A DNA stretch of 64,000 nucleotides from assembly GCA_902779565.1 (NCBI GenBank), contig CACZCD010000001.1, forward strand, positions 3,929 through 67,928. The letters are read 5' to 3'. Made by a program: the position numbers and the translations under genes. Positions 4,590 through 25,360 of the stretch are shown here, in pieces; the stretch's first letter is position 1; every line of letters begins with the position of its first letter. Source of the DNA: an uncultured bacterium (GTDB lineage Bacteria > Verrucomicrobiota > Kiritimatiellia > RFP12 > UBA1067). Under the pieces are notes generated by a model. That model ran no database searches. It was given only the letters and a program-made list of their open reading frames with translations, and had not been told where the DNA came from.

Positions 4590-4624
4590 AGTCTCCTTGA
4601 CGGTCAGTTGGTAGTTGATAGTTG

Positions 4625-7359: not shown

Positions 7360-7436
7360 CTTTCTTCTCTGCCTTTCAAAAAAGTGTGCGTATGATACCA
7401 TTTTGCCGCCCTCCGCGCAAGAGGGTGCGCGGGAAA

Positions 7437-7660
7437 GGCGCTTGTGCTTGTGTTTGTTGCCAGTCCGTGGCCGCGTCCGTTGTAGCCCGTTGCCTGTCCG
7501 TTAGGCGTCCGTATTAGCCCGTGTGAAGTCCGTAATCTGCCTGAAGCCTGTCCATGATATGTCCGTGGGTAGTCCGTGGTGTGTCCGTCTATGGGAGGGC
7601 GAGTGTCCTCGTGAAACGCCTCAAGTCCGTAATGCGTCCTTCTCGTATCCGTGTGAAGAA
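7437..7660 (+). repeat. Array R1: about 17 copies of GTCCGT (variants GCCCGT, GTCCTC, ATCCGT) phased at 10-12 bp (mean ~11 bp). It is an inverted copy of block B of R2.
   Basis: ccagtccgtgg ccgcgtccgtt gtagcccgttg cctgtccgtta ggcgtccgtat ... The first ~60 bp (ggcgcttgtgcttgtgtttgttgccagtccgtggccgcgtccgtt) is the near-exact reverse complement of 23225-23285. Confidence 0.85.
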
Positions 7661-7765
7661 ATGCGAAAAGGCGGGCGGCCCGAAGACCGCCCGCCGCCAC
7701 GGAGGGTGCGCGCGTCCACGAATGCAATCCGCTACGCAATCGCGCGCCTCCGTCTTTCTCCGCCC

Positions 7766-8833
7766 TTATATCGAGACGACAGTCACCGTCACCGGCGAAG
7801 AGGTGTGATCCGCACCGCCGCTGTGGCGCGTCACCGTGACCGAAACCTCGGAATTGTCCAGTACATCGTCGAGTCCGGTGGGCCACTCGGACTTCAAGTA
7901 CACATCGGTCATCTCGTGTACGCTTCCCCAGACCTCCGCACCGTCCTCGCGGGTGAATTTCACCGACAACTCTGAGCCGTCATACCCGAAGTTGCGCCCA
8001 GAGATCATGACTTCCTCTCCCTTGATGAGCTGCCCCGGTATGGCACCCGCAGCCGTAGAGACGATTGAGGTCACCACCGGTGTCAGATCCGGTCCGGGCG
8101 GGATCGCCGCCGCCTTGACCGTGACCTTGTGCAGAGCCGTGACGAGCGGAGCCGTGGGGTCGAGACCGTGCGAGACGAGCCGCACGTAGTATGTCCCCGC
8201 CGATACCGCCGAGGCGAGCGTGCAGATGATCCGCTGGCCGTCCTCGGTGGAGACCACCGTGATGTCTGCGACCTTGGTCAGTCCGTCCGCCGCAACGAGC
8301 GCAAGGGATTCGTCCTCGCCGTCCGGCACCGTGAGATCGATGCCCGCAATGCGGAACTCCTTCAGTCCGTCGATCAGGCGGTAGGTCTCGGACGCGAGAT
8401 CCATGACAGAACTGATCTTCACGTTGCCGTTCACCGCTTCCACCCCGAGGCTTGTCGGTGCTATGCCGGACACCGCATCGCGGATGTCCTGTGAGAGCGT
8501 CGCGCCGATGTAGAGCGTGTTGCGCGGGGCGCGGAACTCGTCGTCCTCGCTGTCGAACGCCCCGCCAATCATCGGATAGAGCGACACCGCGCCCATGTTG
8601 ATGCGTACGACATCGTCCGCGATCTTCTCGGCGGCAAACTCATAGAACGCGTTCAGGAAGTACTGCGCCGTAGCGCGGGTCATGAACGTGCCCCTGTCGA
8701 GCATCCGCTGGAGGATGTTGTCGTAGGCGAGCGAGCCAATCGGAACGGCCACGCCAAGATACGGAGCCTTCGCCGCCGTCGAAGTGCCGTTACGCACGAG
8801 ACGGTAGCCGACTTTCATTGTCTTCGTTGACAT
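7766..8833 (-). CDS. HU-like DNA-binding domain protein of the Bacteroidetes type (HU fold N-terminus + Ig-like/DUF4469-type C-terminal extension), paralog A
   Basis: 355 aa. It is paralogous to the next gene (RINMGAVSLYPMIGGAFDSEDDEFRAPRNTLYIGATL vs RINLGQLTTGFAIRGAFMSEDEAFDPERHQLIATIRTL). The N-terminal pattern resembles Bacteroides histone-like proteins. Confidence 0.5.
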   Translation of the reverse strand: MSTKTMKVGYRLVRNGTSTAAKAPYLGVAVPIGSLAYDNILQRMLDRGTFMTRATAQYFLNAFYEFAAEKIADDVVRINMGAVSLYPMIGGAFDSEDDEFRAPRNTLYIGATLSQDIRDAVSGIAPTSLGVEAVNGNVKISSVMDLASETYRLIDGLKEFRIAGIDLTVPDGEDESLALVAADGLTKVADITVVSTEDGQRIICTLASAVSAGTYYVRLVSHGLDPTAPLVTALHKVTVKAAAIPPGPDLTPVVTSIVSTAAGAIPGQLIKGEEVMISGRNFGYDGSELSVKFTREDGAEVWGSVHEMTDVYLKSEWPTGLDDVLDNSEVSVTVTRHSGGADHTSSPVTVTVVSI

Positions 8834-8850
8834 GATGTTTATCCTTTCTT

Positions 8851-9558
8851 TTATTCCGCCTTCACGACAATGTTCTTCACCTTTGCCGTTGCGGGCTTCA
8901 GCGATTCGCGCATCCCGTTGCGGCAGCTCACGACAAGCGTGTACGTGCCGGGTTCAGGCGGCTCCGCGAAGACGCAGTCGATGGTCTGGCTATCGCTCCG
9001 CTCCACTGTCGCCGTGGCGACGATGTCGCCCGTCTTGGCGTTGACGAGCCACACGCCCTCGTCCGGGTTGTCCGGCGAGATGCCGAGTTTCTGACCCTGA
9101 ATGAGCACGCGATTCGTGCCGGTGATCTCGGAAACGCGCTTCGTGACGGCGTCCATCACGGCGGCGACCGTACAGGTGAGACCGAGCGTGACGTTCTCCG
9201 GCAGCACCGCCGACATCGCACTCTTGAGCGGATCGAGCGTGCGTATCGTCGCGATGAGCTGGTGCCGTTCCGGATCGAACGCCTCATCCTCGCTCATGAA
9301 CGCGCCGCGTATCGCGAAGCCCGTGGTGAGCTGTCCGAGGTTAATGCGGTAGCCCGCAATCAGCTGAGTCATGATCTCCTCCGAGAGCGCGTCGAGGAAG
9401 TACTTCCACAGCGATGCGTCCTGCTTGGTGCGCTCCGCAAGACGCTCCGCGAGTTCATCGCGCCCGATCGTGCCGTTCGTCTGAACGTGGGCTGTATAGA
9501 CCACGCGATCCGTGATTGCGTCAGGAACACGCGTCAGGGAGAATACGATATTGTCCAT
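8851..9558 (-). CDS. HU-like DNA-binding domain protein of the Bacteroidetes type, paralog B
   Basis: 235 aa. TNGTIGRDELAERLAERT matches the ...TGTIDxDELAEEIAE... helix of Bacteroidetes HU-like proteins, and the C-terminal region is beta-rich. Confidence 0.55.
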   Translation of the reverse strand: MDNIVFSLTRVPDAITDRVVYTAHVQTNGTIGRDELAERLAERTKQDASLWKYFLDALSEEIMTQLIAGYRINLGQLTTGFAIRGAFMSEDEAFDPERHQLIATIRTLDPLKSAMSAVLPENVTLGLTCTVAAVMDAVTKRVSEITGTNRVLIQGQKLGISPDNPDEGVWLVNAKTGDIVATATVERSDSQTIDCVFAEPPEPGTYTLVVSCRNGMRESLKPATAKVKNIVVKAE

Positions 9559-9571
9559 TGCATTCCCCCTT

Positions 9572-9763
9572 TCACTTGTTCACCTGAATGCCGAACGGCA
9601 CGCCAAGCCCCACAACCCCGATTGTGTGTGCGGAGTCCGCCGGAGTCGTGACGGCGGTGCATCCCGCAAGCGCCGCACCTGCGACGCCCGCAACGGCCGC
9701 AACTGCGGCCCGTACCGCCTCCTTCAGGAAGGCGATCAGCTTGTTCTTCAGCTTGCTTTTCAT
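9572..9763 (-). CDS. Small lipoprotein (64 aa) with signal peptide and lipobox LAGC
   Basis: MKSKLKNKLIAFLKEAVRAAVAAVAGVAGAALAGCTAV.... The ORF-track start at 9952 is probably over-extended. Confidence 0.4.
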   Translation of the reverse strand: MKSKLKNKLIAFLKEAVRAAVAAVAGVAGAALAGCTAVTTPADSAHTIGVVGLGVPFGIQVNK

Positions 9764-9876
9764 TGACTGTTTTCCTTTGTCTGCATTGAACGGCGGCGAG
9801 CGCATGGCCACGCGGACATGTACGTCCTCCGCCACCATGCATTGGCGTCGGGGATGCGTCCGGGTTCGGAAAATCT

Positions 9877-10374
9877 TCAGAAACCTTCCGCCGCCCACAA
9901 CGCCTTGAACCGCGAAATGAATCCCGGCAGAACATGACGCCGGAACGTCCACATGGCGATGCCGATCTCCGCCGCGACCTTCTTCCAGTTCAGCAGCTTC
10001 ATGTAAAGTTCGGCAATCCGGCGATCCTCCGGCGAAAGCCGAGCGACGGTGTGGCGCACCGCAAGGCGGTCACGCTCCCGGACACGCTGACGCGACGACA
10101 TGGCGTACATGTCCCGCACGGCCTCAACGGCAGGCTCTCCACACCGCATCTGCCACGGAATGAGGGACCGAAAATTGCGCCGCCCTTCGTTCTGCGCCTC
10201 GTTCAAAGCCAAGGAAAGCGCAGCCTTCCGACCGCGCTCCCCTTTATCCTTATTATAGTGCAACCTCCGCAGTATCATGTTCTCGACATCCGATTCGTCG
10301 AGTCCATACGGACGATGCTCACGCACATAGCGCCTCGACCAATGCCGAGCGAAGTCGATTGATTTCCGGTCCAT
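9877..10374 (-). CDS. Sigma-70 region-4-like / LuxR-type HTH DNA-binding regulator
   Basis: C-terminal SPEDRRIAELYMKLLNWKKVAAEIGIAMWTFRRH is a region-4-type HTH. It is 165 aa with no clear region 2. Confidence 0.45.
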   Translation of the reverse strand: MDRKSIDFARHWSRRYVREHRPYGLDESDVENMILRRLHYNKDKGERGRKAALSLALNEAQNEGRRNFRSLIPWQMRCGEPAVEAVRDMYAMSSRQRVRERDRLAVRHTVARLSPEDRRIAELYMKLLNWKKVAAEIGIAMWTFRRHVLPGFISRFKALWAAEGF

Positions 10375-10479
10375 GCCAATGTCCTTTTTCTGGTGGAGGT
10401 CCGGCCCATTCCAGACACTCCCAAGACATTGGCATCGACTTCGCCATCAGGTTCGGTTTCAACGAAAACAATTCAAAAA

Positions 10480-10803: not shown

Positions 10804-11634
10804 TTACATCTTTGGCATCGTGTCCTTCATGCCAAGCGCAAGATACTTGGAGCGCGCATAGTCGTAGTACTTGAGATCGACTATGGAATTCTCTGGAATG
10901 CCGATCGAGGCAAGGTAGCGGTGACGTGCAGTGGTGTCCACGCCATCGGTGCAGCCGGGCACAACAAGGCAGCGAACCTCCATCTTCGCCTTCGCCGCGA
11001 CCAGCCGCTCAAGATTCTTCCTGACGATCTTGTTTGAAACTCCCGTGTACTTCATGTGCAACGTATCGTCCTCGGCCTTGTAGTCTGGGAGCCACAGGTC
11101 CGTGACGGGCAGCATCGCGTCAATCGCAGCGGGTGGCGCGTAGAGCGATGTGTCAAGGCATGTATGAAGTCCGGCGGCCTTGAATGCCTTGAACAGCTCC
11201 GCCGCCCATTCCCAGAAGAACAGCGGTTCGCCGCCGGAGAGCGTCACGCCACCGCCCGACTCGTCGTAGAACGCCTTGTCCTCAAGAGCCTTCGCGACGA
11301 TCTCGGGAATCGTCATCGGCTTGCCGTAGAGCTTGAGCGCCCGCGTCGGACACGTTGCCTCGTCCATCGTGCAATGCTCGTGGTGCTTGCACAGGTGCTG
11401 GAACCGCGCCCACTGCGCCTCAGACTTTATCGATTCGGGGTTGTGGCACCAGATGCACTTCAAGGGGCACCCCTTCACGAAGAAGGTCGTGCGGATGCCC
11501 GGCCCGTCCCAGATCGCCATCCGTTTAGTGTCGAGCATCAGCGGCGCCTTAACGGCACGCCCGGCTGCGGACAGCATTGGGCTTACGGCAAACGCTGTCG
11601 AAGATACGATGAAACTCTTGCGCGTTACAGTCAT
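10804..11634 (-). CDS. Glycyl-radical enzyme activating enzyme (radical SAM)
   Basis: WDGPGIRTTFFVKGCPLKCIWCHNPES (CX3CX2C radical-SAM cluster in the GRE-AE context), plus a second Cys cluster CKHHEHC...C. The true start is probably an internal Met (e.g. 11538). Confidence 0.75.
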   Translation of the reverse strand: MTVTRKSFIVSSTAFAVSPMLSAAGRAVKAPLMLDTKRMAIWDGPGIRTTFFVKGCPLKCIWCHNPESIKSEAQWARFQHLCKHHEHCTMDEATCPTRALKLYGKPMTIPEIVAKALEDKAFYDESGGGVTLSGGEPLFFWEWAAELFKAFKAAGLHTCLDTSLYAPPAAIDAMLPVTDLWLPDYKAEDDTLHMKYTGVSNKIVRKNLERLVAAKAKMEVRCLVVPGCTDGVDTTARHRYLASIGIPENSIVDLKYYDYARSKYLALGMKDTMPKM

Positions 11635-11717
11635 TATGTCACCACTGCTTCATGATATTCTCGGCACGGCGGATGTAGGCATGCCCTTATTGTGCCACAT
11701 TGGCGCATCAGCCACTT

Positions 11718-14700
11718 TCAAGGCAAATATGGACGAATGCAGACGAAATTGACGCCCAGGCGCTCACCCTTGGACGCGGCCTCGTCCGTGATCACGAGTT
11801 CCGTTTCGCCGCGCTCGGCCGCAAACACGACCTGATGCAGGTTGATCCGCCCGTATTTGCCCTTCTTCTTGCTGACCTTCGTGCTGCGGTCAACATATGA
11901 CCAGCTGAGTTCGGGAAGCAACCGCACACCGTCCTTGAAGATGGCCTTAAGCGGAATTTCGCGCGGGTTGGCCTTTCCGGCCTTCATGTCGTCCACATCA
12001 AACGTGGCGTACCTGAGAACGTATGTCCTCCCAGCGACAAGGCCGCAGACCGACTGCGTAAGGTTGTTCGCGGTTTCGCCGCGCTTGAACGAAGCGAAGG
12101 TGTCGCCGCATCCAGTTCTGCCCGCCAGATAACGGTTTTCGGCCCACTCGGCAAGCTTGGGGCATTCGTCAAGCGTCACGTCCCCATGCACCTTCCACGG
12201 CCCGAAAGCGTGCTCGAAATCGCCGTTCCGGAGATGGCCCGGGATGTAGCGCAGACCATACTGCTCCGCAATCGAATCGGTGCGTCCCTCTATGCAGTAG
12301 TGCCGCATCAGGCGGAACGACCAGCGCAGCGTATCGTCATCGGCATGATGGGCGCCCCAGTAACCGGCGGCGACGAGACCATCGCATCGCGGGTCGGTGG
12401 CGAGCGCGTGTATCTGCATCGCGAGATACGCGTTGTAATCGACCTCGGGATGGTGCGCGATCGAAAGCTGCAGAAGCCCCGTGAAGTTCCCACTGACCAC
12501 GCCCAGGCAGTCCTGGCAGAACGGATGCGTATCGCGATACAGCCCCACGCCGACAATCATGGATTCGATGGCCGCAAGCGCCTCAGCCTCCGTCTTTTTC
12601 GTGCGCATATAGCGCTCGTTGAGGAGAAGTCCGCGCCCATGGCCGGCATTCGCAATCGCCGCGAACATCTCGGACTCAATCGGCCGCCGCGTTGGCGACG
12701 CGATCACCCAGGTGCAGACCGTCCGCTCCGTGTCGCGTTCCGCGCAGAACTTCTCGATGGCGTCTATGAACTCCATGTTGGTCTTGTCGTTCTTCGGGCG
12801 GAGTCCCTGTTCGTCGAGCGTGATGCCGTCGCATGCGCGCTGGTTCAGCCCCGTCGATCTGCCGATGTTCCTGCTCATCCTCTCGGCCGTGCCGAGCGTC
12901 CTCACGTTCGCGAGCCACTGCCGCCCGAGGTCGTGCAACCGCCCGATGCTCTCCTTGGGCGCAGGCCCGCCGTTCATCGTCGTCACGCTTGGAACCACGT
13001 AGCGCCAGTAGAAGTCCCAATCGTAGCTCTCCTTGAGCGGCAGCTTGCGCGCGTAGGGGGCATAACAGATGATCATGGGGATCTCGCGCACCGCAATCCG
13101 CCCGGCGCCCTTGACGGCAAGCTGGTGCTCGCCTTGAGAAACAAGCCGCACCGTCTCCAGGGCGGGCGTGCCGTTCGTTATCACGCACTGCCCGTCAAGG
13201 CTTACCTCCGCGCTGTCAGCACCCGACACTCCGATGAACACCCATCCGTGTCTCCGCGTCTCGAACAGAAACTCTCCGGACGTCTCCTCCCCTGGCATTT
13301 TGGCGTCCAGCACCTCGGTCACGTAGTTGTTGAGTCGTTTGCGCCGCTCGGGATGCTTGATCTCCTGCACGGTCTCCACGCCGTACCGATACTTCTTCTC
13401 GTGTATTGCCGTTCCATCGCTGCGGCGCACCAGCGAAACCGTCATACAACCGGAATCGGCATTCTCCGGTAACGTGAAGAACATCTCGTCGCGCACAAGC
13501 GGTGCCCGCAGTTCGCCGCCCCATCCTTCGGAAGATATGAAGACGTCGCAAGTGCTCAGATCGGCGCCGCCCGGCAACTCCCCGAAAAAGCGAAACGAGA
13601 AACGCCGGTCGTCGCTTCTGATCCGCGCAAGCCGGCGGCTCCAAGGCACGAAGCGGGGCTTGCCGTCCACGGATTCGACGGTCCTGTCGGCATCCGAATG
13701 GGCAGTCCAGAATATGGCCGGCCTCAGATCGACATCGCCATCTGCGAGCGTAAACTTCACGTCCTCGAGCTTCACGTTGTCGGCGCAGTCGATGTAGAGG
13801 CCGAATGCCGGCAGGATTGAGGACCCGAAGCTGACCGCAGCATCAGGATACGCTCCCGGCAGCTTCGGCACGGGCTTTTCCATCGCCTCCTTGCTCTTCT
13901 CCTCCCCGGCACCATGGCATGTGATCTTCACGTTCCGCAACGTTACGTTCTTCGCGCGGCATCCGTCAACGCCGGTGATGGAGCTCGCCACAACGCCGTC
14001 CGCCTCGCCCGTCACGTTCTCGATCACGATGTCGCGCAGGATGTAGCTTTTGCCCGGCGACACTCCGGTTGAACGCCCGGTGCGCGTGCCGCCGCGCACG
14101 AATATCGGAACCTTCGCGCCATTCTCAAACGTTATACCGCTGTACCGCACCTGCTCCACCATTCCACCGTCCACGCACTCAACGGAGATGGCCGAGTTGG
14201 CAACGCCGAACGGCGCGCGCTTCGTCGCGCGCCAGAAATACCTGTTCTTCCCGCGATGTTTGGGATTCTTCGAAAGACAGTCGCGCCTCGCGGCCTCGCA
14301 GCGACAGTCTTCGAAGCGGATATTGCGCACCGTGCCGTGGCTGGCCGTGCCTATCTTGAACACGTTGCATTGCGAGCGCCCCACGCAGCGGCGGATCAGG
14401 ACGTTCTCCACGGTGTAGTCTGGGTCGTTGGATTTTATGCAGAACGCATCGTCGCCCGAATCGACATCGCAGTCCTCGATAAGCACGTTCTTCGCCTCGA
14501 TGTCGAACCCGTCGTTGAAGGAATCGGCATGGCTATCGACCTTCACGCGCCGCGCCACAACGTCCTCGCAGCGCTTGAACACGATTCCCCAGCAGGCCGC
14601 GTCGCGCAGGGTGAAATCCTCCAGACGCACCCCCTTGCAGTCCCCGAAGAACAGTCCGCGTGCGTTCAGGCCCTCGCGGCAACCCTTGACGTCCTTCGGG

Positions 14701-15065
14701 CGCTGCGGCCAGCTGAAGCCGTCGCCAAACACCGTCCCCGGCCCCGTGACCGCAACGTTCGTGGCGCAGAGCGCGAACACCACCGCGCTCCACGTCCCCT
14801 CGGAACACGGAAGTTCGGTTACGCGGTAGTCCTTGATGTTCGCAGACCCTTGCAGAACTGCGCCTTCGGCAAGATGCAGCTCCACATTGCTCTTGAGGTC
14901 AAGCTGTCCCACAAGATGCCGCCCGGCCGGCACAACCACCCGTCCACCGCCAGCCGCGTTCGCCGCATCGATCGCGGTCTGCCAGCGCGCGGTTTCGAAA
15001 CCATCTGCAAAAGCGGCCAGCTTGATTGCGCCGGCCGCCGCTACGCAAAATGCACGCAACATCAC
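11718..15065 (-). CDS. Large secreted multidomain glycoside hydrolase with an N-terminal GH28 (pectin-lyase-fold) domain
   Basis: 1115 aa with a signal peptide. GH28 motifs: SGDDAFCIKS (GDD catalytic) and GTASHG (GHG). A long uncharacterised C-terminal region follows. Confidence 0.7.
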   Translation of the reverse strand: MMLRAFCVAAAGAIKLAAFADGFETARWQTAIDAANAAGGGRVVVPAGRHLVGQLDLKSNVELHLAEGAVLQGSANIKDYRVTELPCSEGTWSAVVFALCATNVAVTGPGTVFGDGFSWPQRPKDVKGCREGLNARGLFFGDCKGVRLEDFTLRDAACWGIVFKRCEDVVARRVKVDSHADSFNDGFDIEAKNVLIEDCDVDSGDDAFCIKSNDPDYTVENVLIRRCVGRSQCNVFKIGTASHGTVRNIRFEDCRCEAARRDCLSKNPKHRGKNRYFWRATKRAPFGVANSAISVECVDGGMVEQVRYSGITFENGAKVPIFVRGGTRTGRSTGVSPGKSYILRDIVIENVTGEADGVVASSITGVDGCRAKNVTLRNVKITCHGAGEEKSKEAMEKPVPKLPGAYPDAAVSFGSSILPAFGLYIDCADNVKLEDVKFTLADGDVDLRPAIFWTAHSDADRTVESVDGKPRFVPWSRRLARIRSDDRRFSFRFFGELPGGADLSTCDVFISSEGWGGELRAPLVRDEMFFTLPENADSGCMTVSLVRRSDGTAIHEKKYRYGVETVQEIKHPERRKRLNNYVTEVLDAKMPGEETSGEFLFETRRHGWVFIGVSGADSAEVSLDGQCVITNGTPALETVRLVSQGEHQLAVKGAGRIAVREIPMIICYAPYARKLPLKESYDWDFYWRYVVPSVTTMNGGPAPKESIGRLHDLGRQWLANVRTLGTAERMSRNIGRSTGLNQRACDGITLDEQGLRPKNDKTNMEFIDAIEKFCAERDTERTVCTWVIASPTRRPIESEMFAAIANAGHGRGLLLNERYMRTKKTEAEALAAIESMIVGVGLYRDTHPFCQDCLGVVSGNFTGLLQLSIAHHPEVDYNAYLAMQIHALATDPRCDGLVAAGYWGAHHADDDTLRWSFRLMRHYCIEGRTDSIAEQYGLRYIPGHLRNGDFEHAFGPWKVHGDVTLDECPKLAEWAENRYLAGRTGCGDTFASFKRGETANNLTQSVCGLVAGRTYVLRYATFDVDDMKAGKANPREIPLKAIFKDGVRLLPELSWSYVDRSTKVSKKKGKYGRINLHQVVFAAERGETELVITDEAASKGERLGVNFVCIRPYLP

Positions 15066-16402
15066 TCAATGCTCCCCATGCAGACGAGACGCACACCGTG
15101 CGTCTCGCTTCTATACGTCGGAGAGCCGTTCCCACGCGAAGCAGACCTGCATAAAGAAGCCGCACTTCCGTAGTAACCTCCACGCACAACGCGCATAGAT
15201 GAAGTGCCACGCCGCGGAGACTGGCCATCGTCGGAGACGTTTGCCGCTCCGTTGAGGCTGGAGCAGTCGTCCACATAGTAGTCGTGGCACCATTCCCCCA
15301 AGTTGCCATGCATATCGTAGAGTCCCCAACTATTCTTGCCGTACGACCCGACAGCCGCAGTTGCGTTGTTGGTGGTGCAGAACCTGTCGGGAGCGTCCGT
15401 ACCGTTCACAAGCCCGCCGTTGTACTTGTACCGCCCTGGCAGATTGGAATCTTCTTCCGCATTAGAGTACGGAGTGCCGTCGCCCCATTTGCCTTCGCCG
15501 TTGCCGGCGCGGCAAGCGAATTCCCACTGCGCTTCCGTGGGCATGTCGAAGTCTATGCTTGTCCGCTTGCGAATCATTCCGAGAAATGAATTCTTATGTG
15601 GTGCTTGGGGCCAGTAGGTGGTCTTGTCTGGTTGCACCTGGCTGGTAGTCACCCACCCGGAACACCTGATCTCGGTATAGGCAACGCGATCTACCGGACG
15701 CATTGCTTTGTATGCCTCGTTCGTGTATATGCTGGGGCACTTCCCCATCACGTGATACCATTGCGTCTGGGTCACGGGGAATACGCCGATGTAGTAGTCG
15801 TTCGAGAGCGTCACGAGATGCGGAATTTCGTTTGCCGAGTTGCGCCCAGCCTCGTTGACGCTGCCCATGGTCCACTCCACGTTCTTCGCGTGGATGCGGC
15901 GCATGACCATCTTCGTGGTGCGGTAGTCGTCGTTGCCAAGAAGGCCGCCGGGAAGGAACTCCTCGGACGGATAGTACGCCTGCGTATTTGTCGATACGGT
16001 TGTGATATCCACCACCATGTAGTCCGGCGGCGCGTTCGTCTCCCAGGCCGTGAGAACGGCGCGGATGTTGTTCGCGGGAACCCTGTGTCCCGGCCACGAG
16101 AGGTCGGGCCGCCATTTGATGGAGTAGCGCGACTTGCCGCCAACGATACGGAACACGTCGCTGTCCTCGGTGAAGTTCTGGATGTGTTCGCCGCCGATCG
16201 ACACCCATCCGTTCGCGCCGTTCGTCTGCACGTCAAGCGTCACCACCGCCGGAGACTGCGTGAGTGAATACTCGATGGTTACCGTTCGCCTGACTTGCCG
16301 CACCGTCATGTCTGTGACCTCAGGAAGGTCCGCAATTCCGGAGACGGCGGCGCACGCCGTAATTGCCGCCGCGAATGCCATTTTCATCTTCTGTGCTTTC
16401 AT
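15062..16402 (-). CDS. FGE-sulfatase (SUMF1/EgtB/PvdO) domain protein with N-terminal signal peptide and extra N-terminal domain
   Basis: The C-terminal half ...WEFACRAGNGEGKWGDG...RVVRGGYYGSAASLCRSASRG...HGVRLVC matches the formylglycine-generating-enzyme-like fold. ATGA overlap with the GH28 gene. Confidence 0.65.
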   Translation of the reverse strand: MKAQKMKMAFAAAITACAAVSGIADLPEVTDMTVRQVRRTVTIEYSLTQSPAVVTLDVQTNGANGWVSIGGEHIQNFTEDSDVFRIVGGKSRYSIKWRPDLSWPGHRVPANNIRAVLTAWETNAPPDYMVVDITTVSTNTQAYYPSEEFLPGGLLGNDDYRTTKMVMRRIHAKNVEWTMGSVNEAGRNSANEIPHLVTLSNDYYIGVFPVTQTQWYHVMGKCPSIYTNEAYKAMRPVDRVAYTEIRCSGWVTTSQVQPDKTTYWPQAPHKNSFLGMIRKRTSIDFDMPTEAQWEFACRAGNGEGKWGDGTPYSNAEEDSNLPGRYKYNGGLVNGTDAPDRFCTTNNATAAVGSYGKNSWGLYDMHGNLGEWCHDYYVDDCSSLNGAANVSDDGQSPRRGTSSMRVVRGGYYGSAASLCRSASRGNGSPTYRSETHGVRLVCMGSIE

Positions 16403-16423
16403 TGTTTTTCCTCTTTGATTGGG

Positions 16424-16621
16424 TTACCTGATGCAGACCGAAATTCCACGGAAGAGCCCGTCGCTGTTAAAGTCGAATCCGGAGACCGCCGTTTCCGTGC
16501 AGTATCTGGTATCAAGCTCGAAACCGAACAAAGCCACGCCTGGCATCACCACGTCGTCTGACGCGGTGGAGGCCGCCATCAATGCCGCCGTTGCGGCAAG
16601 AACTGCAATCTTCTTCATCAT
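16424..16621 (-). CDS. Small secreted protein (65 aa)
   Basis: MMKKIAVLAATAALMAASTASDD... signal peptide. Its ATG overlaps the stop of the upstream gene (ATGA). The ORF-track start at 16846 is over-extended. Confidence 0.35.
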   Translation of the reverse strand: MMKKIAVLAATAALMAASTASDDVVMPGVALFGFELDTRYCTETAVSGFDFNSDGLFRGISVCIR

Positions 16622-17685
16622 GCTCTCTCCTTTTGTTTTAATGCTTCTGCGAAAAGATCTATACCCTTGAGGTTGAAGTCGAGGTTCGCCTGCGAACAGC
16701 AGTTGGCCCATGGGGCCATGAGAAAACCGAGGAGGTGTTCGCTCAATATGTGCTTGCGGCAGTACGGCACGAGCGCGCCGATGATGTCGTCGCCGCCGGT
16801 CTTCTGCCGTTTGCGCGCACCGGCGCCCGCCCAGTTCGTGCCGCACGGTATCTGGTCGAAGCCAGCCTTCTCAAGCGCATCGAACGCAGCAAGGCGGTGC
16901 GCGTGCCTGTTGATCTTCGGATCGAGCGACCATTGTCCGAGCTGTTCGTCGTAGTACCAGTTGGACTGCACCACGCTTCTCGGGCAGCGCGTGAAGAACT
17001 CCTCGTGCTCCCAGCCGAAATCACTCCACACCCAGGCGCGCGAGCCAAGCTCCTCCACGCAGCCGACGGTGTAGAGGAAATCGCGCCACCACATGTCGCC
17101 CTGGCGCATGACGAAGTAGTCGCGCCCAGGCGCAAAAAGCGCAGTCTCCTCGTCCCAGCCGAGGTGGAAGAAGCGAGGACGCGAGAAGATCTCCGAAACG
17201 TCACGGATGACGTCTTTGGCCACAATATACCATTCCGGCAGCGTCAACATCCTATGATAATCCTTAAGCCAGCCGTCGTGCGTAGCGGAGAAGTTCAGCT
17301 TCGGGATCGGCTCAAGGCCTGCGGTCCTTAGGCGCTCCACCTCCGCGCGAAGCTTCTCCGCCGACCAGCTGCCCTCAATCGCCAGCTCGGGATGGCTGGG
17401 ATAGATGAGACCCTCGCCGATATCAATCACGATCATGTTGAGATTGCGCTCAACCATCCTATCCGTCACGCGCCGCCAAAGTTCTTCCTTGCATCGAAGG
17501 TTCAGGTCTGGAGTCAGGCGTTTCGGCAGGGAATGCCAAAGATGGCGCGGCAGCCACTCGCCCCACATGTTGTGGCCAAGATGCATCAGCATGGCGCGGA
17601 TGGGTTCCTTCCCGCCTGCATAAGCACCGCCCGCCCCGCGCGTTCCGCGCGAGGCATCGGTGTTGCTATTGATGTCAGTTGCCAT
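16618..17685 (-). CDS. GH20-like (beta-hexosaminidase-fold TIM barrel) protein, family assignment tentative
   Basis: NLNMIVIDIGEGLIY ... EPIPKLNFSATHDGW ... FFHLGWDEE resembles the GH20 catalytic-domain pattern (PEID.PGH ... HIGGDE), with WDEE in place of GGDE. Confidence 0.4.
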   Translation of the reverse strand: MATDINSNTDASRGTRGAGGAYAGGKEPIRAMLMHLGHNMWGEWLPRHLWHSLPKRLTPDLNLRCKEELWRRVTDRMVERNLNMIVIDIGEGLIYPSHPELAIEGSWSAEKLRAEVERLRTAGLEPIPKLNFSATHDGWLKDYHRMLTLPEWYIVAKDVIRDVSEIFSRPRFFHLGWDEETALFAPGRDYFVMRQGDMWWRDFLYTVGCVEELGSRAWVWSDFGWEHEEFFTRCPRSVVQSNWYYDEQLGQWSLDPKINRHAHRLAAFDALEKAGFDQIPCGTNWAGAGARKRQKTGGDDIIGALVPYCRKHILSEHLLGFLMAPWANCCSQANLDFNLKGIDLFAEALKQKERA

Positions 17686-17820
17686 TTGCTTTATGCCGCT
17701 TGATCCTGATGCAACTCTGGTTGTTCCTTAATTGGCGCGTGTTATATCCCGACCGCATCCTATTTCGCAATCCCGATAGAAAGGTGAATCCGCCATCTCG
17801 CATAGGACAGTCATTGTGTG

Positions 17821-20229
17821 TCACCATCCCTTCATCACGTTTTCTGCACGGCGGATGTAGGCATCCTGTTCGGCCTTGCACATATCATTCCACCGCACGT
17901 TCCATCCGCAAATACGAACCTGTAGATTCTCGTATTTTTCGGGGTGCGCCTGGGCATCACGGAGCATCTCTGCACTGAACACGGTGAACTGGATCACGCC
18001 GCCACCGTTTCGGTGGAACATCTGAACGAGCGCACGCATGGCCGCCAGCCCCTTTTCACCCTGAACGACTGACGGATGAAGTAATACGTCAAGCGGATAG
18101 TCGCTTGGTAGCTTCTCCGCCGAAGAAGAAGCCAGGGTCGCAACGAGCGCCGTGGCACCCTCTGTATCGGCTCCCATCGTAGGAGAAAGGTTCTTCGAGA
18201 GTTCATCGCCCTTTTTGCGTCCGTCAGGTGACGCGGGCGTCTTCTTCCCGAGCTCAATGAAGCGCCGCGAGGAATGCCCGCTCGCCAGAAAGATCCCGCC
18301 ACGAGAATTGGGGATGCCATTCAGGTTGGAAGCGAATACATCGATTATCTCTGCGCCCAATGCGTTGGACTCCGGGTCGTTGTTGCCCCACTTCCGCTTT
18401 GAGCGTAGCATCCTCAGGCGCAGCGCCTCATGTCCTTCCCAATCTGATGCCATGATTTCGCCAAGTACGGCCAGCGACTTTTCACGCTTTTCATAGACAA
18501 TCTCCTTCACGGCCAGCAACGCATCCACCGAACTGCCAAGGCCTAACGCGCGCAGCGTGGTATCATTGCCGCGCGGGCACCCCGTTGCAAATCCATCCTG
18601 ACGGGTCTTCAGGGCGTAATCGGTCGCCAACGTCATGCAGATGGCGGGGTTGACCTCAGATAGGGCCTTTTCAATCTCGTACACGATCTTGCGGCTCCTT
18701 GTCGTGTTTTGGGCGACCCGTTTCATGTACTCCGACCGAAACACCTCGAATGTACCCCAATCGGCTGAAGGCGCGCCCTTCCGCGCCTCGTCCAGCATTT
18801 GCACCACAGGGAAGAGCAAGTTCAGGTTCACGGTGTCTGTCGTGTTCAGGCTGTCCGCCAAGCCAAATTCATAGCACCCGCGCACGGCCATGGTACGGCA
18901 GTCTTCGTCGCTTGCGTTTTTCCACCGCTTGAGTACCTTTGAAGCCGACTCCTCGCCAAGGAACGCCACGGAACGCCGCCGCCGCGCCATGTCGAGCAGT
19001 TTCGCCCACGCCCAATCCGGCGTGTTTCCGCCCACCTTCACGATGAACTTGGGTGAGGTGAGGTTGAGCTCATCGACGACATCAAGAATGATGCGCGAGA
19101 CCTCCCCGAATTCGCTGGAACCATCCTGTTTCGTGCCGCCCAGGCCCGCGGGCTGTGCATAGTAGTTCGCGGCGGAACCCCACTGCCAGAGGAAGTGCTT
19201 GATCTGCTCGCGGAATTCCGCCTCGGTCGTGCGCCCCACCGCAATGTCGGAAACATAGTAGGGCGCAAGGAACACATCCAGCTCCGTGAGTGAACGGCAC
19301 TGGATGCCATCGAGGTGTTCCGACCAGAAGAAATAAAGCCACACAAACATCAACATGTCGTAGGCCGTCTGCGGCGGGCCGTTCCGCAGACGCTCCAGAC
19401 AAGCAATTTCCTTTTTAAGACGATCCTTACCATTTGCAATTTTGATTCTTGAACAATTGAGGCAATTGTCATTTGTGAACAATTGCAGTTGTTTCCTCCC
19501 CTGTTCGACAAAACGATCTATTCCGACGAGCATTGCATCCATCGCGATGCGGCATGACTCGCAGAACGGATCGTCTTTCACAGCATACTTCTCCAGACGC
19601 GCCTTCATACCCGGGAATCCGAGCGCGAGGATTACGCGCCAGTCGGGAACGGAATGGTCGAAATCCCGCCACATGAGCCAACGTCCTTCGGCATTGCCGT
19701 CATGCCACTCTTTCCAGGCCCAACTCGGAAGCGTCCTGTTCACTTCGCCATGCCGATGCTTGCCAGCAGAACGGATGGGGCGATTCCAGCGATCCCACAC
19801 GGCTATTGCCGGGAACCAGTCGAAGGGCGACACATCTATAGATTGCCGCTCGATCTGGGCGGCAAAGCATTTCGCCTTCGTGACGCGCCAAGACTCATTT
19901 GCCGACTTGCCCTTGGCGACGATCACTGCCAATAGTTCCTTAAGGGCATCCGTGCCCAATCCCGTCGTCCTGTCAGTAACATCCTGACGGAATTTTCGGC
20001 GCAGATACGTGTCCATATCCGTGATGTTCGCGACATATGGATCCCACCAAGTGATGTCTTCGACACATCTACGCTTTGGCACGACTACTTCATCCCCAAC
20101 CGTGGATGGGGCGGCAACGCCCATCGACAGGACCGCCGCACAGACTGCCGATAGCAGATGCCGTATAAGACACTTGTCTTTCATTGCTCCTCCCATCACT
20201 TCTTCACCACAGGATTGGAACCAGCCCAC
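17821..20229 (-). CDS. Glycyl radical enzyme (PFL-like, dehydratase/lyase GCxE subclass), substrate unknown
   Basis: The C-terminal glycyl-radical domain ...MLRDAQAHPEKYENLQVRICGWNVRWNDMCKAEQDAYIRRAEN aligns with the GRE consensus ...LLDAQKHPEKY..L.VRVSGYSA.F..L....QDDII.R. An internal MAVRGCYEFG fits the GC[VLM]E thiyl-radical loop, and 802 aa is typical. The N-terminal ~70 aa (hydrophobic, signal-like) are probably not part of the mature enzyme; an alternative start is MDTYLRRKF. Confidence 0.75.
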   Translation of the reverse strand: MGWFQSCGEEVMGGAMKDKCLIRHLLSAVCAAVLSMGVAAPSTVGDEVVVPKRRCVEDITWWDPYVANITDMDTYLRRKFRQDVTDRTTGLGTDALKELLAVIVAKGKSANESWRVTKAKCFAAQIERQSIDVSPFDWFPAIAVWDRWNRPIRSAGKHRHGEVNRTLPSWAWKEWHDGNAEGRWLMWRDFDHSVPDWRVILALGFPGMKARLEKYAVKDDPFCESCRIAMDAMLVGIDRFVEQGRKQLQLFTNDNCLNCSRIKIANGKDRLKKEIACLERLRNGPPQTAYDMLMFVWLYFFWSEHLDGIQCRSLTELDVFLAPYYVSDIAVGRTTEAEFREQIKHFLWQWGSAANYYAQPAGLGGTKQDGSSEFGEVSRIILDVVDELNLTSPKFIVKVGGNTPDWAWAKLLDMARRRRSVAFLGEESASKVLKRWKNASDEDCRTMAVRGCYEFGLADSLNTTDTVNLNLLFPVVQMLDEARKGAPSADWGTFEVFRSEYMKRVAQNTTRSRKIVYEIEKALSEVNPAICMTLATDYALKTRQDGFATGCPRGNDTTLRALGLGSSVDALLAVKEIVYEKREKSLAVLGEIMASDWEGHEALRLRMLRSKRKWGNNDPESNALGAEIIDVFASNLNGIPNSRGGIFLASGHSSRRFIELGKKTPASPDGRKKGDELSKNLSPTMGADTEGATALVATLASSSAEKLPSDYPLDVLLHPSVVQGEKGLAAMRALVQMFHRNGGGVIQFTVFSAEMLRDAQAHPEKYENLQVRICGWNVRWNDMCKAEQDAYIRRAENVMKGW

Positions 20230-20511: not shown

Positions 20512-21585
20512 TCAGACTTTCAACTCCGATCCTGAGTCGCCGTCTCGTATGTATTTTACGCTACGCCCCTCTCCAACCTTGCGGACAGCACCGTTCTTGA
20601 CAAGCGAGCCAAGCACGGCTTCAACGGTCGTGGGGCTTACGTCTGGCAATGCACGGCAGATGTCGACCTTTGAGATAGGCGTCAGCGCATTGAGGACGAT
20701 GCTTTTGATCCGGGCCGACTTCGTTACGCGGCCCGTGCTCACTACGGCAAAGCGCCGGTCTAGTTCCTCGTAGCATCCATAAAGCGTCATCAGAAAATTG
20801 ACCATGAACGGGAACGGGCTGTTTTCGTTTGTCTGCCATCCTGCCGACGAATCGCGAAGTGCCGCATAATAGGCGGCCTTGTCTGCGTTGATGCGCTGCT
20901 CGAATGAAATGTACTTGCCGGCGTCGAAACCGTTCCTGTAGAGAAGCAGCAGCGTCAGCAGACGGCTCATGCGTCCGTTGCCGTCGGGGAACGGATGGAT
21001 GCAAAGGAAGTCAAGTATCACGCAAGGAATCAACAGCATCTTGTTTATCTCGACGTCGTCACGGGCCTCCATGTATGCGAGGACAAGCTGCTTCATCGCC
21101 TCCGGCGTCTCCTCCGCGCTTGCAGGGGAAAATCGCACCACGCGCCGGCCGTCTGACATGCGCTCGGCAATCACGTTATCCTCATGCTTGTATCCTGGCT
21201 CCACATCTGACGCCACATAGCGGAGCAGCATTCCGTAGAATCCAATGATGTCTGATTCGGTGAAGTCATGTAGCCGGTAGTTCAGGTGGATTTCGTTCAG
21301 GGCATCACGATAGCCGGAAATCTCCGCTTCAGTATGGTTCATGGGGGATGTCCCCTCCTGCATCAGCTCGGCAAGTCGAGCATCGGTGGTGACAATCCCT
21401 TCAATCGCGTTCGATGCCTTGACGGACTCGATCTTCGCTATGCGCTCCAGCTCCGAATATGCGTGCATAAACCTAACTTTGCGTTCAGCCGACAGCACAC
21501 GAAGAGCTGCGATGCTGCTCGTCAAGTTCACCAGTTTTGCCGGCAGCAAGTCGTTTTTCAGGTACGAATAGTCAAAGATGTGCAT
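20512..21585 (-). CDS. Fic/DOC family protein (AMPylator-type)
   Basis: Canonical Fic motif HPFPDGNGRMSRLLTLLLL. Start chosen at MHIFDYSYL (21585), preceded by AAGGAG. It lies in locally AT-rich DNA. Confidence 0.85.
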   Translation of the reverse strand: MHIFDYSYLKNDLLPAKLVNLTSSIAALRVLSAERKVRFMHAYSELERIAKIESVKASNAIEGIVTTDARLAELMQEGTSPMNHTEAEISGYRDALNEIHLNYRLHDFTESDIIGFYGMLLRYVASDVEPGYKHEDNVIAERMSDGRRVVRFSPASAEETPEAMKQLVLAYMEARDDVEINKMLLIPCVILDFLCIHPFPDGNGRMSRLLTLLLLYRNGFDAGKYISFEQRINADKAAYYAALRDSSAGWQTNENSPFPFMVNFLMTLYGCYEELDRRFAVVSTGRVTKSARIKSIVLNALTPISKVDICRALPDVSPTTVEAVLGSLVKNGAVRKVGEGRSVKYIRDGDSGSELKV

Positions 21586-21710
21586 AGTTTCTCCTTTTGT
21601 GAATAATATTATACCACCTTTTATGCACAAAAACAACAGCTCATGCATAAACATCTTATCTTTAATATGCAGATATGATGCTATACACGGGGAAACACAT
21701 AATTGACCTC

Positions 21711-21739
21711 ATTGCATCACGCCCCAAAATAGTGTATAA
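21711..21739 (+). promoter_or_regulatory. Sigma-70-type promoter for the AraC-family gene: -35 TTGCAT, 17-bp spacer with TG extension, -10 TATAAT
   Basis: ttgcat cacgccccaaaatagtg tataat at 21711-21739, about 55 bp upstream of the ATG at 21793, in an AT-rich divergent intergenic region. Confidence 0.45.
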
Positions 21740-21792
21740 TTGGCGCATCTTTCATAAGGCCGTACAATCCATCGGAAGGAGGGGAGCAAGCA

Positions 21793-22584
21793 ATGACACT
21801 ACGCGAAAGGAAGAAACTGCAACGCGACTTCTTTGAAGCCGCCGGCCCGAACACGGCCGCGTTCCGTGCACTGATTGATACGATTCCCGATGCGTGCTTC
21901 TACATGAAGGACTTGAACTGCCGCATCATGGCGCTCAACAAACGCAACTGCGAAGTGTGCAACATCAAAAACGAGCTGGATGTGGTGGGGATGCGTTCGG
22001 ACGAAGTTTTCACCCCTGCCGACGCCGAAAGCTTCATGGAACTCGACCTCGAAGTGCAAAGAACCAGAAAGCCAGCACTGAATCGCGTCGAAACGCATCC
22101 TGCCGACAAGTCACCAGGATTCACAATCGCCAGCGTCTATCCGGTCAAGAACAGATTTGGCGACATAATCGGCACCATGCGCCTGTACAGGGTATTCACG
22201 TCACACGACAATATGCCCGAATGGCATGGGCGGATGAAAGCCGTGGTAGCCTACATACAGGAACACTATGCGGAAGAAATCTCCCTTGATGAGCTGGCCA
22301 AGCTGACGGGCAGCTCGGTAAGCCAGTTCAAGCGCATCTTCACGAAGACGCTTGAGATGTCGCCCGGAAGATATATCGTCAACACCCGGATCAACGCCGC
22401 CCGCAAGCTACTGGAGACCACAGACAAGCTCGTCTCTGACATCGCGCAGGAAGTCGGCTTCTATGACCAAAGTCACATGACGCGGGCGTTCAAGACGATT
22501 CGCAGCACCACGCCCGGCGAATACCGCCGCAAGCACCGCTCCATTACGGCCAACAACTCATCCGCACCCAAACGCAAATCCTAA
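21793..22584 (+). CDS. AraC family transcriptional regulator with N-terminal PAS-like sensor domain
   Basis: C-terminal ...YIQEHYAEEISLDELAKLTGSSVSQFKRIFTKTLEMSPGRYIVNTRINAARKLLETTDKLVSDIAQEVGFYDQSHMTRAFK is a canonical AraC dual HTH. Confidence 0.8.
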   Translation: MTLRERKKLQRDFFEAAGPNTAAFRALIDTIPDACFYMKDLNCRIMALNKRNCEVCNIKNELDVVGMRSDEVFTPADAESFMELDLEVQRTRKPALNRVETHPADKSPGFTIASVYPVKNRFGDIIGTMRLYRVFTSHDNMPEWHGRMKAVVAYIQEHYAEEISLDELAKLTGSSVSQFKRIFTKTLEMSPGRYIVNTRINAARKLLETTDKLVSDIAQEVGFYDQSHMTRAFKTIRSTTPGEYRRKHRSITANNSSAPKRKS

Positions 22585-22611
22585 CCGCCCCACCCAATCC
22601 CCCACAGCCTT

Positions 22612-22735
22612 CCAACGGACAGAACACGGACAAGTTACGGACTTGCGACGGACAGCCGCTCCGCACACATAAACGGACTCGGGACGGACTGAAAACGGAC
22701 AGGCGCTCGCAGGGCGACCGCCCTGCCTCGGACAA
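22612..22735 (+). repeat. Array R2 block A: about 9 copies of ACGGAC phased at ~11 bp
   Basis: caacggacaga acacggacaag ttacggacttg cgacggacagc ... aaacggactcg ggacggactga aaacggacagg. Confidence 0.8.
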
Positions 22736-22936
22736 TCAGCCAGCGAAACCACACAATCCCCAACCACCCTCAACCGTCGCCCCGCACCCCGCGACCACTG
22801 CGTGGCTCGGCCTTCGACCTCGAATGATATCCCTGCGCAATCCCCCGCAGTTCCTCCAATCCACCACTCCTCCAATCACCCAATCCTCACACCCCACCCA
22901 CTCCACACCCGCAGAGCCAGCCTTGAACACCCTAAA

Positions 22937-22975
22937 CGATGTTCATGGTTTATAAACTCTGAACATCGGTTTTTT
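22937..22975 (+). terminator. Near-perfect 32-bp palindrome CGATGTTCAtggTTTATAAActcTGAACATCG followed by GTTTTTTG. It could be a plus-strand intrinsic terminator or a dimeric-TF operator.
   Basis: 9-bp perfect stem, 14-nt loop that is itself palindromic (GTTTATAAAC), and a T-run immediately 3' on the plus strand. It lies in the R2 core about 350 bp downstream of the AraC gene. Confidence 0.3.
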
Positions 22976-23004
22976 GCTGCACACGTATTTGCAACGTGAT
23001 TACC

Positions 23005-25346: not shown

Positions 25347-25360
25347 GTTAATCCTTTTTT

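Follow-up and report, generated by a model that had tools for sequence, protein, structure and literature searches.

Hexamers of the type GTCCGT recur in an 11-bp register on the forward strand of a 64,000-nucleotide stretch of DNA from an uncultured member of the Kiritimatiellia (contig CACZCD010000001.1), which will be called the window. Fourteen such units at 7463..7652 form an array just inside the left end of an island, a segment of 15.86 kb (~7430-23285) that is bounded by inverted repeats. With high confidence, this segment is an insertion between two housekeeping genes, because in related contigs YqeY is directly followed by rpmE. We consider the array to be the left subterminal repeat region of this mobile island, which would be non-autonomous and would present phased sites to a recombinase supplied in trans, and we assign this reading a probability of about one half. 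Its mechanistic part is held with moderate confidence only, as no enzyme was found in the island. The likely role of the array is to offer a DNA-moving protein many docking sites, rather than to control the ribosomal-protein operon.

The insertion was recognized by comparison with strains in which the site is empty. Exact-protein look-up with rpmE retrieved eight contigs from other rumen metagenomes (L123-L128, L130 and L131) that carry YqeY and then rpmE, separated by a spacer of 95-97 bp and with no array, and whose flanks are 90-95% identical to the window. The empty junction reads ...CCCCG(TCG)CCGCG, directly followed by CACCCTCTTGCGCGG. The filled junction reads ...CCCCGCCGCG, followed by the island, which starts with GGAAAGGCGCTTGTG and ends with CACAAGCGCCTTTCC, and then by CGCGCACCCTCTTGCGCGG; comparing the two yielded CCGCGCACCC as the target sequence. 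The tetranucleotide CGCG, single in the empty site, is found on both sides of the island in the window (7428..7431 at the left junction, as defined by the eight empty-site contigs, and 23284..23287 at the right). Since CGCG is palindromic and prolongs the inverted repeat, target duplications of 0, 2, 4 or 5 bp all fit. The island is located within the host palindrome CCGCGCA-n6-TGCGCGG, ~45 bp past the YqeY stop codon, and the putative -35 element of rpmE follows ~7 bp further downstream. The host flank at 7392..7427 contains one half of this palindrome and, on the minus strand, the putative rpmE promoter (TTGCGC at 7420-7415 and TATCAT at 7397-7392, 17 nt apart), and is identical or near-identical in the empty-site contigs; the promoter was not called by a consensus scan and its assignment is inferred from the sequence. 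A preliminary description of the array had correctly placed it between the 3' end of an HU-like gene and the start of rpmE and had regarded it as an upstream feature of the rpmE-prfA operon. This attribution had to be abandoned, since the promoter region of rpmE is intact and free of arrays in all eight related contigs. As the island is inserted and the empty sites are devoid of the array, the latter lies outside the native rpmE upstream region. Of the features expected of a DNA transposon, terminal inverted repeats and a presence/absence polymorphism with an intact empty site are both present.

A ninth contig (L129) carries a diverged solo terminal repeat, GGGAGAGACTCTTGTGCTTGTGCTTGTTGCCC, which agrees at 26/31 positions and is situated within ~2 bp of the same rpmE-side junction. 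At the site of the island (8200-9935 of L129), this contig has an SSF (sodium:solute symporter) gene, with the terminal repeat only on the rpmE side and no array, and the locus resembles either the remains of a related element or a derivative of it with one end. Since two of the empty-site contigs, L125 and L126, are nearer to the window than L129, the solo repeat points to either repeated site-specific events at one target or an insertion followed by precise loss, as far as can be judged from the sequences.

Both arms of the island follow a common plan, proceeding from the terminal repeat to an outer array, a gap and an inner array. The terminal inverted repeats of 50 bp each (7432..7481 on the plus strand, GGAAAGGCGCTTGTGCTTGTGTTTGTTGCCAGTCCGTGGCCGCGTCCGTT, and 23234..23283 on the minus strand) proved to be 100% complementary in an inverted-repeat search and by alignment of the arms; with CGCG included, the repeat measures 54 nt (7428-7481 and 23234-23287, likewise 100%) and encloses 15.75 kb. 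The left repeat contains the first two hexamer units of the left array, which is composed of an outer block of 11 units (7463-7588) and, after a 36-bp gap, an inner block of three degenerate units (7625-7652). The right arrays are inverted relative to the left one. The outer right array (23016..23252, minus strand) consists of 22 consecutive GTCCGT-like units, 14 of which are exact, and 19 of its 21 spacings amount to 11 bp, with one of 10 and one of 12. The inner right array (22615..22700, minus strand) holds 7-8 units, seven of them exact GTCCGT (ACGGAC on the plus strand), and begins 30 bp past the stop codon of an AraC-type regulator gene, so that the island has 14 units at its left end and 22 + 7 at its right. 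The two right arrays are set apart by a 315-bp spacer, and between them a terminator-like palindrome is located at 22934..22978 (plus strand; CGATGTTCA...TGAACATCG followed by TTTTTTG). On the left, an intrinsic-terminator-like hairpin at 7660..7698 (minus strand; GGCGGCGGGCGGTCTTCGGGCCGCCCGCC followed by TTTTCGCATT) ends the HU-like gene HU355, and the array lies directly beyond it; hence both the left and the outer right array are found beyond a terminator-like hairpin. Alignment of the arms in inverted orientation was perfect over the terminal ~54 nt and gave 64/65 identical positions through GTAGCCCGT. Deeper inside, the arms agree mainly at the hexamers, with 86% identity in the hexamer columns, a value that is partly circular as these columns were defined by the motif, compared to 44% in the spacer columns. 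Short contigs break off precisely at the terminal repeat. The possibility that two array-bearing mini-elements make up a composite transposon was considered and rejected, since neither arm has an inverted copy of the terminal repeat at its inner edge.

The left array clearly exceeds what is obtained with shuffled sequence. Nine exact copies of GTCCGT were detected on the plus strand at 7463-7630, and allowing up to one mismatch yielded 14 units with spacings of 12, 10, 11, 11, 10, 11, 22, 11, 11, 11, 42, 11 and 11 bp, corresponding to a register of ~17 slots with 14 occupied, which is close to the about 17 units initially reported. Within the 224 bp of 7437-7660, G[TC]CCGT occurs 11 times, compared to a mean of 1.3 and a maximum of 6 in 5000 dinucleotide-preserving shuffles. 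Phase coherence was maximal at a period of 11 with a vector strength of 0.86, compared to 0.67 at 10.5, 0.33 at 10, 0.26 at 11.5 and ≤0.33 at 12. The complete window contains 80 GTCCGT matches versus 44 +/- 6.5 expected; 30 of them are part of the left array and its inverted partner, and the remaining 50 are near expectation. Over 43 units, information amounted to 0-0.47 bit per spacer position versus 1.3-2 bits per hexamer position, a contrast that is partly built in as the units were picked by their hexamer. The array at 7437-7660 and its ~11-bp phase, as described previously, are confirmed by the enrichment and by the period-11 peak, and the described lack of spacer conservation, with hexamer and register retained, was seen between the arms and between strains. 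As to the earlier interpretation, helical phasing stands; the assignments to the rpmE-prfA upstream region and to a ParR-type centromere do not. The preliminary description had not linked the left array to the longer array 15 kb away or to the terminal repeat at the left edge of the interval. From 11.0 bp per unit we infer that the sites would lie near the same face of the helix, drifting by ~17 degrees per unit relative to B-DNA of 10.5 bp, i.e. by about one superhelical turn per 22 units. Cooperative nucleoprotein assembly on one face is the most natural reading of such a phased architecture.

The island carries a conserved four-gene module at its left edge (7766..10374, minus strand; Pfam and NCBIfam). 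It comprises a sigma-70 region-4-like gene of 165 aa with weak similarity (9877-10374), a small open reading frame (ORF) of 63-88 aa (9572-9838), an HU-HIG/DUF4469 gene of 235 aa (HU235; 8851-9558) and the HU-like gene HU355 (355 aa; 7766-8833), whose C-terminus is hypervariable, all on the minus strand. The cargo (10804..20229, minus strand) encodes a radical-SAM activase, a GH28-like protein of 1115 aa, an FGE-sulfatase-like protein, an uncharacterised protein of 355 aa and a glycyl radical enzyme according to Pfam, which also identified a Fic-family gene (20512-21654, minus strand) and the PAS-AraC regulator gene (21793-22584, plus strand) at the right edge. The G+C content of 20512..22584 is 0.51-0.52 and thus below that of the surroundings in the composition profile. 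The two terminal genes of the island are transcribed outward, and each array reads as ACGGAC on the sense strand of its neighbour.

More than 180 homologues of HU355 were found, nearly all in rumen assemblies and mostly on contigs of 1-2 kb, one of which is labelled Kiritimatiellae. The four-gene module is also present in L287, L290, L291, L297 and L301, where it occupies the 3' edge of varied glycoside-hydrolase/polysaccharide-synthesis clusters of rumen Kiritimatiellae. Within the HU355 family, the N-terminal ~250 aa are up to 98% identical and the C-terminal ~100 aa are unrelated between variants. The DNA homology of HU355 to L287 (96.8%) ends at the domain boundary at ~8088, and a similar terminator hairpin is located 3' of the gene in both, which suggests a cassette-like diversification. 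PDB sequence searches with both HU-like proteins gave no informative matches. Several further repeats were noted around these modules. GC-rich palindromes (GCAGGGTGCGA-n-TCGCACCCTGC) are present upstream of the sigma-like gene at 10480-10600 of the window, and L298 has five AACCATGCAAGTT repeats with a spacing of ~22 bp at 9400-9530, upstream of its own sigma-like gene. A similar palindrome, GCAGGGCGACCGCCCTGC, follows the inner right array (22701-22725) as well as the array of L300 (~1375-1400). All of these may represent operators. In L297, a direct repeat of ~170 bp (40-200 and 1490-1620) encloses an AAA_14/DUF4143 ATPase gene directly upstream of the HU-HIG module.

Related arrays were found elsewhere in Kiritimatiellae. 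In L287-289, the HU355 terminator, a hairpin of the type found at 7660..7698, is followed by an ACGGAC array with an 11-bp period and at least 18 units, near a GH20 cluster and a transfer RNA (tRNA) gene, and in L300 an ACGGAC array of nine units with the same period follows the HU355 terminator. Other HU355 homologues have unrelated repeats downstream (L290-296 and L301) or none (L297). Blocks of 2-3 units are common to arrays of independent contexts, namely CCGTAACTTGTCCGTAGTGTGTCCGT for the right arm and L287 and AGCCCGTGTGAAGTCCGT for the left arm and L300; as judged from these shared blocks, the Kiritimatiellae arrays are one family that changes by unit turnover. Turnover is also apparent in L421, whose AraC protein is 98% identical: the orthologous inner right array comprises 10 units where the window has 7, its spacers differ and its flanks are ~97% identical, with eight of the 10 units corresponding to ACGG[AG]C and the other two being ACGGCC and ACGGCT. 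In the ~250 kb of related Kiritimatiellae DNA that were examined, arrays were detected only after HU355 modules and at the right end of the island; no arrays were present in the contexts of AraC homologues with 79-86% identity, and contigs with glycyl radical enzymes revealed nothing further. A weak candidate for a shared outer-edge terminal motif, CACAAGC-N-CCT-NN-CC, was noted at 9317-9345 of L287, 7432-7462 of the window and 9900-9931 of L129 in three versions (AGCACAAGCGCCTTTCC, CGCACAAGCTCCTCACC and AGCACAAGAGTCTCTCC); the motif would serve as a searchable signature. Beyond the array, L287 contains at 9470-12000 the tRNA gene and, after it, phage-like genes together with DUF2924 and a gene for a serine recombinase of large size (Resolvase/Recombinase/Zn_ribbon_recom). 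This region is probably a prophage that integrated at the tRNA gene just past the array, and it is probably unrelated to the array. The serine-recombinase prophage was considered as mobilising agent and was rejected, as it occupies a tRNA gene outside the array and seems to have integrated independently.

Outside the Kiritimatiellae, a scan of one genome per species with three successive GTCCGT-N5 units as query yielded at least 118 loci; among the 118 matches listed, 34 were from two Lentisphaeria metagenome-assembled genomes (MAGs). The Lentisphaeria arrays are near-perfect tandem 11-mers (GTCCGTGTCCC / GTCCGTGTAAA) with up to 23 units and two spacer types. They are followed by a conserved hairpin and a GT-rich tail, forming dispersed composite elements with a variable number of units, and are mostly found 60-100 bp past the stop codons of convergent genes, which belong to no one family. 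The MAG STF1_46 contains at least six copies of a composite element of ~330 bp with two oppositely oriented arrays, one of them variable in length. In this element (L060, L106, L112, L001 and L029), a variable (ACGGACGGGAC)4-13 array and a fixed GTCCGT array of four units are accompanied by an invariant 70-bp core with the promoter-like sequence TTGACT-17-TATGGG, and ACGAAAA is present at both borders. The only ORF family recurring near the Lentisphaeria arrays is the abundant DUF1559/prepilin-type family, and no HU-like gene was found near any array of the two MAGs. Single matches in Streptomyces, Bacteroidales, Cloacimonadaceae and others were treated as background. In IMG/VR, the same query matched 110 contigs, which contain perfect tandem repeats of diverse 11-mers and come from unrelated phages. 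Two control hexamers of identical composition matched 58 and 40 contigs, and most matches outside the clade are thus regarded as background. The preliminary description would have been refuted by a common dispersed repeat without phase conservation; the family is indeed dispersed, but the 11-bp phase is kept in every copy seen. BLAST of 7400-7700 against plasmid and phage collections gave no match, no tRNA or tmRNA gene was detected in the window, and no description of the GTCCGT motif or of the array architecture was found in the searchable literature.

Intergenic tandem repeats of other kinds were observed in the same DNA, and the genome seems to be unusually rich in such arrays of short period. 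At 4606-4774 and 25343-25430 of the window, the gene-sense (minus) strand shows a stop codon followed by (AGGTGGAA)n, a hairpin, (CCTCTGCGT)3, (ATCAACT)n, a ribosome-binding site and the next ATG; repeats of these types also follow the HU355 homologues of L290-296 and L301. Further examples are (GAGGGTT)n ... (CCTCTTC)n around a GC hairpin at 44008-44127, a 15-mer repeated 4.7 times at 33367-33437 and, inside the alpha-2-macroglobulin-like ORF at 33793-39699, (AGGTTGAA)n followed by the near-complement (TTCAACYC)n at 35735-35837.

How the arrays of the island might work can be proposed as follows. The hexamers would be putative sites for a sequence-specific DNA-binding protein, as hexamer and register are kept at the inverted ends of an inserted island while spacers and unit number change. 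Such a protein would be loaded cooperatively on one face of the helix and build up a filament on each end, and the two filaments would pair the ends for excision and integration, a task carried out by transposases on the multi-site ends of IS607/IS1535, Tn7, Mu and hAT elements. The catalytic protein would not be encoded by the island, making this copy non-autonomous and dependent on mobilisation in trans. The small intergenic elements of the Lentisphaeria, which occur in dozens and have the same hexamer and period, might be miniature relatives served by the same binding protein. A more far-reaching version is possible but doubtful, namely that GTCCGT-N5 arrays serve for recognition in a so far undescribed system of DNA mobility, or of DNA organisation, that is confined to Kiritimatiellae and Lentisphaeria. 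There, a recombinase or an architectural protein of the HU-HIG type would polymerise on the 15-30 phased hexamers of each end, and cargo islands of at least 15 kb as well as miniature derivatives would be moved into specific intergenic sites.

Several findings argue against a subterminal platform of a mobile island. Searches with Pfam, NCBIfam and PHROGs revealed no domain of a transposase, integrase or recombinase, either in the island or in other large ORFs of the window, and with a duplication that is ambiguous between 0 and 5 bp, no transposition chemistry can be assigned. The arrays of L287-289 and L300 follow an HU-HIG module. In the Lentisphaeria, the conserved tail lies on the opposite side of the array compared to the terminal repeat of the window, the 330-bp element of STF1_46 has no clear terminal inverted repeats, and ORF clustering in the two MAGs revealed no recombinase candidate recurring beside arrays. 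The core of the terminal repeat, TTGTGCTTGTGYTTGTTGCC, gave 44 matches in JGI metagenome contigs, none of them beside an array and hence chance matches, and 7 matches in IMG/VR, which were taken as chance without individual inspection for arrays. In addition, the presence of several other kinds of intergenic tandem arrays in the genome raises the prior for arrays without a dedicated partner.

The association with HU355 might alternatively mean that the array is a cis platform for the adjacent HU-HIG pair and/or the sigma-like helix-turn-helix protein, acting as a nucleoprotein boundary or insulator at the edge of glycan clusters, and that the island ends bear the array only because the module lies at the edge. 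The ACGGAC array is located directly past the HU355 terminator in three contexts (window, L287-289 and L300), the ~250 kb of related DNA contain arrays only after such modules and at the right end of the island, the module encodes two proteins with an HU fold, and HU355 homologues are mostly found on contigs of 1-2 kb, as expected if they are flanked by repeats. We nevertheless consider this explanation rather unlikely, as the right arm has 29 units and no adjoining HU module, other HU355 homologues are followed by unrelated repeats or none (L290-296, L301 and L297), and HU-like genes are absent near the arrays of the two Lentisphaeria MAGs. Moreover, P0001 and P0002, which differ in unrelated C-terminal domains, are both followed by ACGGAC arrays, i.e. 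there is no visible co-variation. For the HU-HIG clade it was also argued that the fused Ig domain occludes the DNA cleft, making sequence-specific DNA binding unlikely (PMC5499826), and this published argument speaks against an HU-HIG platform as well. Alternatively, the arrays could be a selfish or neutral satellite, a slippage-prone 11-mer that grows and shrinks between the genes of this clade and was merely acquired at the island edges, without any dedicated partner. This would agree with the many other intergenic tandem arrays with periods of 7-15 bp in the window and its relatives, with the polymorphic unit number, and with the finding that 11-bp repeats built on arbitrary hexamers are frequent (viral contigs: 40 and 58 for the controls, 110 for GTCCGT); the near-perfect 11-mers with two spacer types in Lentisphaeria would reflect recent expansion, and these copies fit the definition of a simple tandem repeat or satellite. 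The window arrays do not fit it, since only 6 of the 11 positions are kept and TRF detects fragments of the arrays only. Neutral decay should affect all 11 positions alike, but the spacers of the window are near-random while hexamer and register are kept over 43 units, between arms and between strains. Furthermore, Kiritimatiellae and Lentisphaeria, which are different classes, share hexamer and period with differing spacers, and two inverted arrays directly inside perfect terminal repeats would have to be a coincidence. A satellite origin of the window arrays therefore appears improbable.

The repeats might also act as RNA, since ACGGA, the form of the motif on the sense strand of the outward-facing terminal genes, fits A(N)GGA, and a transcript or 3' UTR with 7-30 such motifs could sponge a CsrA/RsmA-like protein. 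In all Kiritimatiellae contexts, the strand that is sense for the upstream gene shows the array as ACGGAC. The inner right array, with the AraC stop codon on one side and a terminator-like palindrome on the other, is probably transcribed, most MAG arrays are found 60-100 bp past the stop codon of a convergent gene, and the sequence is predicted to be unstructured with accessible motifs. The left and outer right arrays, however, lie beyond strong terminator-like hairpins, and no promoter-like site was predicted for the arrays. Rfam, at gathering thresholds and at E ≤ 1, revealed no CsrB/RsmZ-type or other family, the sole match being PtaRNA1 with 17 bits and E = 0.66. Folding of both strands of the left arm was no better than that of shuffles (z = 0.02 and 0.08), and the motifs are not in hairpin loops. 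The orientation is not an independent observation because module and array are co-inherited, and the bias in the MAGs is only ~22:13. A strict 11-nt register that persists through spacer turnover corresponds to the helical phasing of DNA, which RNA binding does not need, and we regard an RNA sponge as very unlikely. Almost no credence is given to a ParR-type partition centromere, as put forward initially, or to a wrapped regulatory complex on the rpmE-prfA operon. A short direct-repeat motif about one helical turn apart with variable spacers does resemble type Ib/II partition centromeres. The locus, however, is chromosomal with housekeeping flanks, no ParA/ParM/ParR-like (ribbon-helix-helix) gene or partition NTPase gene was found in the island by Pfam, NCBIfam and PHROGs, and the array shows no similarity to plasmid or phage records. 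Eight related contigs have the same sequence upstream of rpmE and no array, and in the window the array is matched by an inverted counterpart at the other end of the insertion.

Among known systems, the ends of IS607, Tn7 and hAT elements come closest to the proposed subterminal platform of a mobile island. Tn7 and Tn7-like elements have asymmetric ends with several directly repeated transposase sites, spaced by multiples of ~11 bp, and insert site-specifically a few tens of bp downstream of a conserved gene. Each Tn7 end carries 3-4 sites of 22 bp, the termini are TGT...ACA, insertion creates a 5-bp duplication, tnsABC(D/E) are encoded, and the right end, rich in sites, is nearest to the conserved gene. 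The island resembles this arrangement in that its right arm with 29 units abuts YqeY and in its large cargo. In contrast to Tn7, neither such termini nor tnsA/B/C domains were found and the units are hexamers at 11 bp; a 5-bp duplication is possible. Elements of the hAT type (Ac/Ds with AAACGG hexamers, and Hermes) possess short terminal inverted repeats and many subterminal hexamers as transposase sites over ~200 bp per end, and non-autonomous copies are mobilised in trans. These are eukaryotic elements with irregular spacing, mixed orientation and an 8-bp duplication, whereas the spacing here is strictly 11 bp and the orientation is uniform in each arm. The multi-site ends of hAT elements are also mentioned in work on IS1535, a member of the IS607 family and the best documented precedent in bacteria, in which dimers of the serine transposase TnpA start a filament on four subterminal 9-bp direct repeats in helical phase, extend it and capture the second end (PMC6188088). 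Short direct repeats in helical phase just inside the element end are common to IS1535 and the island, and insertion of IS607 elements with no duplication or one of 2 bp is compatible with the ambiguous CGCG junction (PMC6188088). The dimensions differ, as IS1535 has four 9-bp motifs in ~60 bp and the island 14-29 hexamers over 190-640 bp. IS607 elements of ~2 kb moreover have tnpA/tnpB, a GG crossover and no terminal inverted repeats, whereas the island has perfect 50-bp repeats and is, with its cargo, 15.9 kb in size. Pfam detected no Resolvase/MerR-type gene in the island, which together with the perfect inverted repeats and the target CCGCGCACCC places it outside the IS607 family. The ends of Tn7, Mu and hAT elements follow the same multi-site logic as those of IS1535.

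Cooperative assembly on short repeats is also known from plasmid partition. R1 parC/ParR, pB171 parC1/2, TP228 parH and the omega heptads use direct motifs of 4-11 bp with variable spacers on which ribbon-helix-helix proteins form a cooperative helical or ring-like complex. Such centromeres belong to plasmids and adjoin or overlap the promoter of an operon that serves partition and includes an NTPase gene, whereas the arrays described here are the inverted ends of an insertion. REP/BIME and bacterial miniature inverted-repeat transposable elements are small non-coding intergenic elements present in dozens per genome, REPs being palindromic units without phased hexamer arrays. The Lentisphaeria copies resemble them in occurring in dozens per genome, mostly just downstream of genes, with a conserved hairpin and a variable internal copy number. 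They differ in that neither a RAYT nor a transposase was observed in their vicinity, and inverted termini or duplications could not be clearly delimited. Overall, the island fits the general kind of a transposon-like island with multi-site ends and falls outside every named family considered, and its end architecture of 15-30 strictly phased hexamers is unusual for bacteria.

If the hexamers are indeed docking sites, the island would represent a bacterial mobile element that combines a perfect terminal repeat with 15-30 phased hexamers, an extreme form of a multi-site end. A complete glycan-degradation cluster would then have been moved between rumen Kiritimatiellae strains without an enzyme of its own, marking a route of horizontal transfer for carbohydrate-utilisation loci in a poorly studied gut phylum, and inverted GTCCGT-N5 arrays would provide a DNA signature for locating such islands. 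The binding partner could prove to be a new transposase family or reveal a function of HU-HIG proteins; in case the adjacent HU-HIG pair is the partner, this would be the first function for this rapidly diversifying clade. Even on the dullest reading, a hexamer and a phase that are kept through spacer turnover offer a natural experiment on spacing in protein-DNA filaments.

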